Positions 61,710-62,620 of a DNA stretch of 64,000 nucleotides are shown piece by piece. Every line of letters begins with the position of its first letter. Position 1 is the stretch's first letter. The stretch is taken from the NCBI RefSeq assembly GCF_017348835.2, contig NZ_CP071375.1; one strand, given 5' to 3'. The notes under the pieces were generated by a model. That model did no database searches. It was not told where the DNA came from and was given only the letters and a program-made list of their open reading frames with translations. Source of the DNA: Escherichia coli (lineage in GTDB: Bacteria > Pseudomonadota > Gammaproteobacteria > Enterobacterales > Enterobacteriaceae). Both the position numbers and the translations under genes were made by a program.

Positions 61710-61751
61710 AAAACGAGAGCGGTGGCTTAGTCTGGCTAAGCCACCTGTTAT

Positions 61752-62132
61752 TCAAAGGCTCCAGGTATTTAACCCTTTTACCTCTTTCTCATAGAACCAT
61801 TTGTTCGTGTTAACAGCAACATAGGCTGCTACGGCAATTCCCAGAATGTTAACGCCAATTAATGCACCAACAAATAGAGATAGAATGCCAAGTAATAGAA
61901 CTATAATTGCTTTTTTCCATAAGCCCAGAACAAATAAATAGATCCAGGAACAGAAGAAAGCAATGAAATTCATTTGAATAGTTAATCGTTGTCTTACTTT
62001 TAATGCTTTAAATGCTGCTTTATATTCTGGTGTTGCTCCCCAGAATCCAGGAAAGCCATGTTGATCATAAAAATTAAATCGGTATTTCTATTTTTCACTT
62101 AATGAACCATCGTTCATATATTCCTTACTCAT
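61752..62132 (-). pseudogene. yigF: yigF-like small membrane protein frame interrupted by an in-frame TAG at codon 15 (plus 62088-62090); 73-aa downstream ORF 61752-61973 remains open
   Basis: SD (GGAG) plus ATG at 62132 opens a 126-codon frame MSKEYMNDGSLSEK*KYRFNFYDQHGFPGFWGATPEY...MNFIAFF...; stop read directly. Confidence 0.4.
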
Positions 62133-62145
62133 AAATACTCCATAA

Positions 62146-62526
62146 CTATTGTTTTGATGAATCAGTAGGTGCAAGCATTAGCATACTGAAAGTGGAAAAA
62201 TAACAAATCAAAAAAATCATCGAACCATTGCCTGAACAGGCAAAATCTTCGGCTATCATTGTGATGATAGAGATGATATATACTGCTAATGTACCAAAAA
62301 CATAAGTTTTTATATAGATGAAACCACTATCACGGAGTCGCTGGCAATTCATGTTGATGACGAGATAATGGAGTACGATGGTAGAGACTATAACAAGAAA
62401 ACCTGCTTCCCCATCGTTAAAAAAGATAATAAGAAAGGCAAAAATGAAATTTATTAAAATAAATGAAAATATATATCGGCGTCTGGAAATCTTACCGTTA
62501 GATGTTGGGATAAACATACGTAACAT
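62146..62526 (-). CDS. yigG: Small inner-membrane protein YigG (126 aa from internal Met with SD)
   Basis: Track ORF 146 aa; AAGGA SD precedes [12 protein letters not shown]...; three predicted TM segments. Confidence 0.55.
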
Positions 62527-62620
62527 AAATTTTACATCCTTGTGTGAGTCTCCTGTCAGCATGGCAATATGCCCACTCTCATACAAGAGTCGGCATATTT
62601 TTTCAGAATATATTTATTTT

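Follow-up and report, generated by a model that had tools for sequence, protein, structure and literature searches.

An AT-rich yigF-yigG islet between corA and rarD in Escherichia coli, and the turnover of the slot that holds it

We examined a 64-kb stretch of an Escherichia coli chromosome (NZ_CP071375.1; hereafter the window), in which an AT-rich islet carrying two small genes, yigF and yigG, lies between corA and rarD, as a first-pass annotation made from the sequence had placed and named them. The islet is most probably a 0.9-kb xenogeneic cassette set between two convergent core genes, silenced by H-NS, old in its arrival, exchanged through its flanks, and dependent on no mobile element. 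That a foreign-looking, H-NS-silenced islet exists at yigF-yigG is already known for K-12. What is added here is the recognition of yigF as a pseudogene in this strain and of the gap between corA and rarD as a slot that is small, hypervariable, and without mobile elements.

Base composition, silencing, and layout of the islet

GC content over 61740-62620 is 0.3405, compared with 0.5227 for the whole window. When 881-bp windows are moved across the 64 kb (mean GC 0.523, standard deviation 0.036), the islet lies about five standard deviations lower; the minimum, 0.338, is reached in the window starting at 61751, and just 0.095% of windows are equally low. At a finer scale, 200-bp windows give 0.315-0.35 over 61800-62599 and 0.50-0.56 in the flanks, and 100-bp windows show sharp edges at ~61700, at the corA stop (61709), and at ~62640, past the rarD stop (62621). 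Runs of five or more A/T are ~4-fold denser in the islet than in the window (12.1 versus 3.2 per kb) and TpA is ~2-fold more frequent (0.091 versus 0.043). GC at third codon positions (GC3) is 0.28 in yigF and 0.32 in yigG, and 0.62 in both corA and rarD. These figures bear out the initial impression of a GC content below that of corA and rarD, of long A/T runs, and of AT-rich codons.

Published work on K-12 supplies the evidence for silencing. The locus is one of 78 "promoter islands" (4000528_663, 663 bp, yigF/yigG; Panyukov and Ozoline 2013, PMC3661553), is listed there as bound by H-NS "according to all studies" in K-12 (Table 1), and is predicted to be foreign by two methods, those of Nakamura et al. 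and of Lawrence and Ochman. Fig 7C of a study by high-resolution in vivo protein occupancy display (IPOD-HR; Freddolino et al. 2021, PMC8282354) uses the locus to illustrate a small, silenced extended protein occupancy domain (EPOD), and yigG harbors one of six tested H-NS-repressed intragenic promoters, which require an AT-tract and sigma70 R451 for activity (Warman et al. 2020, PMC7229825). The suggestion that this is H-NS-silenced DNA is therefore supported by chromatin immunoprecipitation, EPOD, and promoter data, all obtained in K-12, to which the window is 98.4% identical over 61650-62700; the same interval is 100% identical to strain PE164. Gene coordinates follow the Prokaryotic Genome Annotation Pipeline (PGAP) annotation of PE164, an identical strain, and the gene order is corA (+), a hairpin, yigF (-), yigG (-), a 94-bp spacer, rarD (-), and yigI. 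The features are as follows.

61710-62620, no strand: AT-rich islet, 34-35% GC, from the corA stop to the rarD stop, between convergent core genes
60759-61709, + strand: corA, left core flank (PGAP annotation of matching genomes)
61721-61745, no strand: terminator-like bidirectional hairpin with a 10-11 bp stem, between the corA stop and the yigF stop, called on both strands (GGTGGCTTAG...CTAAGCCACC)
61752-62132, - strand: yigF, DUF2628, 126 codons; a pseudogene here (Trp15 to stop), annotated by PGAP with an "internal stop" in the 100%-identical PE164, intact in K-12
62088-62090, - strand: nonsense codon TAG in place of Trp15 (TGG in K-12; changed base 62089)
61752-61973, - strand: putative residual yigF open reading frame (ORF), 73 codons from Met54, the membrane-spanning part alone (from the ORF list and the hydrophobic stretch 50-109)
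62146-62526, - strand: yigG, 126 codons, intact; predicted four-helix inner-membrane protein, divergent DUF805 member
62226-62375, - strand: "yigG1.2" promoter fragment (PMC7229825), in the sense direction of yigG; both published primer sites are exact in the window
62566-62599, - strand: stable 14-bp hairpin (inverted repeat) in the rarD-yigG spacer, without a U-tract and not a canonical terminator
62621-63511, - strand: rarD, right core flank, directly upstream of yigG-yigF on the same strand

The rarD-yigG spacer folds stably (106 nt, dG -24.8 kcal/mol, z -3.8), and the terminator scan called no terminator-like site at 62566-62599. Because the hairpin there has no U-tract, read-through from rarD is possible. 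The ORF list for the islet holds yigF, yigG, and one overlapping ORF on the opposite strand, with no integrase or transposase, and searches for border repeats, att-like repeats, and target duplications at the islet edges returned only short chance matches. The islet thus lacks the integrase or transposase and the flanking repeats of a classical genomic island, and its flanks are protein-coding (no tRNA scan was run).

Elsewhere in the window, the sole other stretch below 42% GC (881-bp windows) is 44141-45070, with a minimum of 0.414, which covers the hemY-aslA intergenic region and the 5' end of aslA. The uvrD-corA interval (58641-60390) is likewise variable and somewhat AT-rich (GC 0.43-0.47). 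Here it holds a 300-amino-acid "SAM hydrolase/SAM-dependent halogenase family" gene (58641-59543, - strand) beside yigE (59626-60390, - strand); KFu022 has yigE alone, and Salmonella and Kosakonia records have no annotated gene between uvrD and ysgD/corA. An 18-codon leader ORF, ysgD/CorL, is annotated upstream of corA in matching genomes (60552-60608).

The two genes and selection on them

The first-pass description of two encoded small membrane proteins holds for yigG, which is intact, and fails for yigF, which is broken by the TAG at codon 15. Besides the stop, yigF differs from K-12 at eight positions, all of them synonymous, and Trp15 is invariant in 11 orthologues from 11 lineages. The lesion in this strain is rare and recent, because the exact 61-mer around the stop is present in two of the 2,381 complete genomes with this allele class. 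YigF consists of ~50 hydrophilic N-terminal residues followed by membrane helices, and its invariant motifs are KWK-x-RF in the N-terminal part and LGLWKKA where the membrane helices begin. The K-12 protein scores 40.6 bits against Pfam DUF2628 (gathering cut-off 23), the window copy stopping at codon 15, and all 11 YigF orthologues match the family above threshold. Gene decay is common around the slot: yigG has an internal stop in K207-3 (L007:3701-4081), a DUF3289 gene found in other fillings of the slot is frameshifted in KFu022 (L008:4167-5014), and yigE is frameshifted in FDAARGOS_1276 (L004:314-1077).

yigG differs from its K-12 counterpart by four synonymous changes and one conservative replacement, I4M. 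Its product has a single family match, to the NCBIfam equivalog PRK11371 (255.7 bits), and lies under the Pfam DUF805 cut-off of 25.7, at 17.3 bits for the window copy and 22.1 bits for a second E. coli allele, A', described below; five of the 11 YigG orthologues match DUF805 at E below 0.01. A profile built from these orthologues found 52 cluster representatives among 1.84 billion, and among its weakest matches (E from 1e-5 to 3e-4) five of the ten that were tested score above the DUF805 cut-off, exceeding it by as much as 60.5 bits. The N-terminal "S-R-x-x-Y" and the central "R-x-R-D-x-G" are motifs that YigG has in common with DUF805. Because its profile reaches proteins that pass the family cut-off, YigG is a small, divergent, enterobacterial branch of DUF805 that is almost specific to this slot. 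Its AlphaFold2 (AF2) model is a four-helix bundle (pLDDT 87.9). Foldseek searches of the PDB with the YigG and YigF AF2 models gave no match below E = 4.9, and YigF, YigG, and the ORFs of another slot filling, type C below, had no family at E up to 0.1 among PADLOC and PHROGs profiles. DUF805 includes E. coli YhaH/YhaI. To our knowledge neither DUF2628 nor DUF805 has a known function, and a literature search on the two families found no functional study.

The first-pass label of "uncharacterised" is accordingly right for biochemical role and wrong for phenotype, as YigG has one in Salmonella, where the gene responds to chlorine stress and mutants deleted for it attach less to surfaces (PMC3579871). 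The same paper states that yigG is absent from serovar Enteritidis, and gives 82% amino acid identity between the Salmonella and K-12 YigG proteins; in our tblastn comparison YigG is 57% and YigF 84% identical (L090:2524-2982), and the 82% figure may concern the neighboring gene or another alignment.

The yigFG alleles of E. coli fall into two deeply split classes, the K-12-like class A and class A', which has 82% nucleotide identity over the query. When the two are compared, the ratio of nonsynonymous to synonymous divergence (dN/dS) is 0.15 for yigF and 0.20 for yigG, at a dS of 1.25 and 0.70, respectively, compared with 0.07-0.17 for corA, rarD, and yigI in the same genome pair. YigF and YigG motifs are also conserved across genera, in orthologues from 11 lineages. 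By these measures, yigF and yigG are real genes under purifying selection.

Distribution and turnover of the corA-rarD slot

One genome per species was scanned with CorA, and the 5 kb downstream read, in 80 Enterobacterales species. In most of them the corA-rarD gap is 45-133 bp of normal GC that holds a hairpin or REP-like (repetitive extragenic palindromic) terminator. Such a near-empty gap is seen in most Enterobacter, Citrobacter, and Klebsiella, in the sampled Kluyvera, Cedecea, Hafnia, and Erwinia, and in one Pectobacterium; the slot of sampled Yersinia is also empty of yigFG (51-276 bp, one of them short and two others 172-276 bp). The yigG-yigF pair occupies the slot in Escherichia, Superficieibacter, Atlantibacter, Pseudescherichia, Phytobacter, Kosakonia, Mangrovibacter, and an Enterobacter-labelled isolate, and likewise in Salmonella Typhimurium (slot GC 0.36), and its order and orientation are constant in every slot holding it. 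The first-pass annotation had proposed that this DNA was anciently acquired or H-NS-silenced, and the pair is indeed not universally or vertically conserved, with the slot empty in most of the 80 species and yigFG carried by 2,962 of 5,426 complete E. coli genomes (~54%).

The flank proteins are 81%-100% identical to those of K-12, while YigF is 34%-83% identical and YigG is 30%-76% identical or below detection. YigF identity correlates with RarD identity across nine genera (Spearman 0.89), which fits an old residence with fast divergence. Every pair with readable context abuts corA, including divergent members from metagenomes. Relationships within the cassette conflict: A-type YigF is 83% identical to Superficieibacter and 70% to E. 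coli A', while A-type YigG shows the reverse, 46% to Superficieibacter and 76% to E. coli A'. E. coli A' and E. albertii share 99.6% identity across the cassette and 93%-94% across the adjacent corA; therefore, transfer of the cassette between species appears to continue, the breakpoints being in the flanks or at their borders. Ancient acquisition, as originally proposed, is thus one part of the history, to which continued exchange between species has to be added.

Neither a genuine plasmid nor a phage proved to carry the pair among the records inspected (94-kb E. coli "plasmid" records were left out), and the Salmonella and Kosakonia "plasmid" records were chromosome fragments. Two PLSDB entries of 96-97 kb, NZ_CP047533.1 (L090) and NZ_CP019447.1 (L092), carry uvrD-corA-rarD-yigI-pldA and are evidently chromosomal, as are two E. 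coli "plasmids" of 4.9 Mb (NZ_CP134663.1 and NZ_CP141089.1). Pantoea megaplasmids have only a lone DUF2628 gene, 39% identical. In a metagenome contig from an enterobacterium (L095:193-3610), genes for a LacI-type regulator and for an enolase-superfamily protein (MR_MLE), at 57% GC, lie in the slot; an AT-rich (38% GC) YigG-like/YigF-like pair follows and adjoins corA. In Serratia, Pantoea, Dickeya, Edwardsiella, Pluralibacter, Franconibacter, some Pectobacterium, and others, the gap is 1.1-2.0 kb of GC-normal DNA (0.53-0.64) unrelated to yigFG (L032, L048, L057-L061, L065, L071, L072, L076, L077, L079, L080, L083, L085-L088).

Diagnostic-junction searches over the 5,426 complete E. coli genomes, which yield approximate counts, revealed at least seven slot arrangements, among them the following.

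yigFG alone, class A: ~2,080 genomes
yigFG, class A': ~566 genomes
Type D, corA, DUF943 and DUF3289, a corA 3' fragment, and yigFG: ~300 genomes, including E. coli C
Type C, effector module and corA fragment as in type D, then a different AT-rich filler: ~1,408 genomes, including O157
Type B, effector module alone with a 51-bp yigG relic: ~930 genomes, including Nissle 1917
Near-empty form, a 128-bp gap left by an internal deletion of the type C filler: 28 genomes

All slot fillings measured have 32.5%-34.7% GC. The effector module in these types consists of DUF3289, a colicin-M-like toxin acting in the periplasm, and DUF943, its immunity protein, which together form a candidate type VI effector pair (PMC11148199, Mol Syst Biol 2024). 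The pair is present in the slot in ~2,640 of the 5,426 genomes and also in Atlantibacter, sometimes beside yigFG; tblastn with DUF3289 and DUF943 against the whole 64-kb window gave no match. On either side of the module the corA 3' end is directly repeated. The repeats measure 137-141 bp in Escherichia, and types C and D share their starting position in corA. A single homologous crossover of a circular fragment carrying the corA 3' end would leave just such a footprint, and stacking probably took place in this way; recombination between the corA repeats would remove the effector module again. Type B would then be a deletion product of a stacked ancestor, because the yigG relic remains in it. 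In Atlantibacter a 274-bp corA repeat surrounds a module that is 73%-77% identical; given this different repeat length and module identity, stacking there would be an independent event.

The possibility that the type C filler is a diverged yigFG was rejected for yigF, for which tblastn gives no match. The filler does hold a third, very divergent YigG-family gene (128 amino acids, E = 3.5e-12 to the YigG profile, 29% identity). This gene is intact and unannotated in strain 272 (L005:1585-1971, - strand), and in STEC367 (L006:3044-3322, - strand) its start codon is lost and a 92-amino-acid ORF is left. It adjoins a divergently oriented hydrophobic ORF of 99/114 amino acids, and PGAP annotates this neighbor alone, as a 99-amino-acid "hypothetical protein."

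Competing explanations and known systems

The explanation we favor would run as follows. DNA rich in AT, A-tracts, and TpA is coated by H-NS, so that the module is silent in the laboratory and spurious intragenic promoters are masked, as published for K-12. The history would comprise one old arrival in the slot, a divergence that was fast yet constrained, and repeated loss, and homologous recombination through the conserved flanks would still be replacing the cassette, with no need of an integrase or mobile element. To judge by their conserved adjacency, YigF and YigG probably act together in the inner membrane, where they would affect envelope or surface properties. Expression of yigG-yigF may be confined to conditions that lift H-NS repression or to transcripts that read through from rarD.

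Several observations weigh against this account. Strong purifying selection means that the genes must be expressed and useful somewhere, and "silenced foreign DNA" is then not the whole story. An ancient arrival whose GC3 is still ~0.3, with no drift toward the host, is unlike simple amelioration models. The H-NS data come from K-12 and not from this strain. A scan for -35/-10 consensus sites over 60700-63600 found three promoter-like sites where 4.9 are expected, hence no excess; the published "promoter island" was defined by another algorithm that includes promoters without a good -35, and a simple scan fails to reproduce it. The high-affinity H-NS motif TCGATAAATT is absent from the islet at up to one mismatch and occurs twice at up to two, a density (2.2 per kb versus 0.95 per kb) too weak to use. 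Conserved adjacency is the one argument for a joint function, and the 39%-identical DUF2628 gene of Pantoea stands alone.

Other explanations have to be set against the silenced-cassette account. Roughly half of E. coli genomes have the DUF3289/DUF943 effector pair in the slot, both E. coli type D and Atlantibacter stack the two modules, and deep allele classes (A, A', and the third YigG-like gene) occur at one locus; small polytopic inner-membrane proteins are, moreover, a common form of immunity protein. From this one might take yigG-yigF for an orphan protective or immunity-like module directed against membrane- or envelope-targeting toxins, within a small "antagonism island." Such a role is suggested only by the company kept in the slot, and we think it unlikely: no toxin partner adjoins yigFG, DUF943 already accounts for immunity to DUF3289, and each of yigFG and the effector pair is found without the other (types A, B, and C). 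Nor does a dN/dS of 0.15-0.20 show any sign of diversifying selection, and there is no PADLOC or PHROGs match, no structural match to known immunity proteins, and no literature link. We give a similarly small chance to the composite proposal that the corA-rarD gap is an integrase-free cassette-exchange site, working by single-crossover stacking, repeat-mediated removal, and interspecies swaps, whose YigF and YigG are envelope-protective, immunity-like proteins. If an outside, AT-rich donor had supplied the cassette recently and repeatedly, through a phage, plasmid, or integrative element, this would explain the strongly atypical composition, the patchy distribution, and the near-identical DNA in two species. 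Such an origin is less likely still, as the islet shows no integrase, transposase, att-like repeat, target duplication, or PHROG match and the enterobacterial plasmid matches inspected are mislabelled chromosome fragments. The YigG family is also tiny (52 of 1.84 billion representatives), readable pairs all abut corA, and YigF identity tracks that of RarD.

Composition and coding raise two further alternatives. Both proteins are largely membrane-spanning, and GC at the second codon position of their genes (0.33-0.34) is not under that of corA (0.33), so the low GC might be a by-product of encoding hydrophobic, Ile/Phe/Leu/Asn/Lys-rich membrane proteins and no sign of foreign origin or H-NS targeting. 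This is very improbable and already contradicted: the low GC is not an amino-acid effect, because GC3 is also far below that of corA and rarD, and RarD is itself a polytopic membrane protein. The non-coding spacers of the islet are as AT-rich as its genes, alternative slot fillings have 32.5%-33.1% GC even where they include the soluble-looking DUF3289 gene, and H-NS binding has been measured in K-12. That yigF and yigG are chance ORFs in an AT-rich spacer rather than functional genes would agree with their silence in laboratory K-12 and with the ease with which disabled copies are found (yigF here, yigG in K207-3). We hold it to be the least credible of these ideas, with almost nothing left to recommend it once dN/dS is 0.15-0.20 at saturating dS, which already contradicts it, motifs are invariant across 11 genera, AF2 models are confident, DUF2628 is matched above threshold by every YigF orthologue, and deletion has a phenotype in Salmonella.

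The islet itself is a re-identification of textbook-type H-NS-silenced DNA, for which little is at stake, and three independent lines of published work already use the locus as an example. Beyond this, the slot offers a compact natural example of a gap between core genes whose contents turn over without mobile-element machinery. About half of E. coli genomes hold a colicin-M-like type VI effector/immunity pair at corA-rarD, and an unannotated third YigG-family gene is flagged. Purifying selection despite laboratory silence makes yigF and yigG a reasonable target for finding conditions that relieve H-NS silencing.

With respect to promoter islands and EPODs, the locus in the window is the published locus itself and does not differ in kind; strain-level variation and the nonsense yigF allele are what is new. 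The spurious intragenic promoters were studied in the K-12 sequence (PMC7229825), and in the window, where both primer sites are exact, the promoter is a predicted one. Among protein families, YigF passes the Pfam DUF2628 threshold, and YigG resembles DUF805 in its motifs, four helices, and profile link and differs in its sub-cut-off score. The DUF3289/DUF943 pair occupies the same slot as yigFG and has no detectable homology to either gene. A literature search on a corA/rarD hotspot returned nothing relevant, the one candidate paper making no mention of the locus. In chromosomal hotspots, accessory genes turn over between conserved core genes. The corA-rarD slot is like them in its fixed flanks and variable contents, with all measured fillings AT-rich. 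It differs in being very small (0.1-2.7 kb) and in having no integrases, tRNA genes, or mobile elements; exchange apparently relies on homology in the flanks, and directly repeated corA 3' ends mark the stacking.

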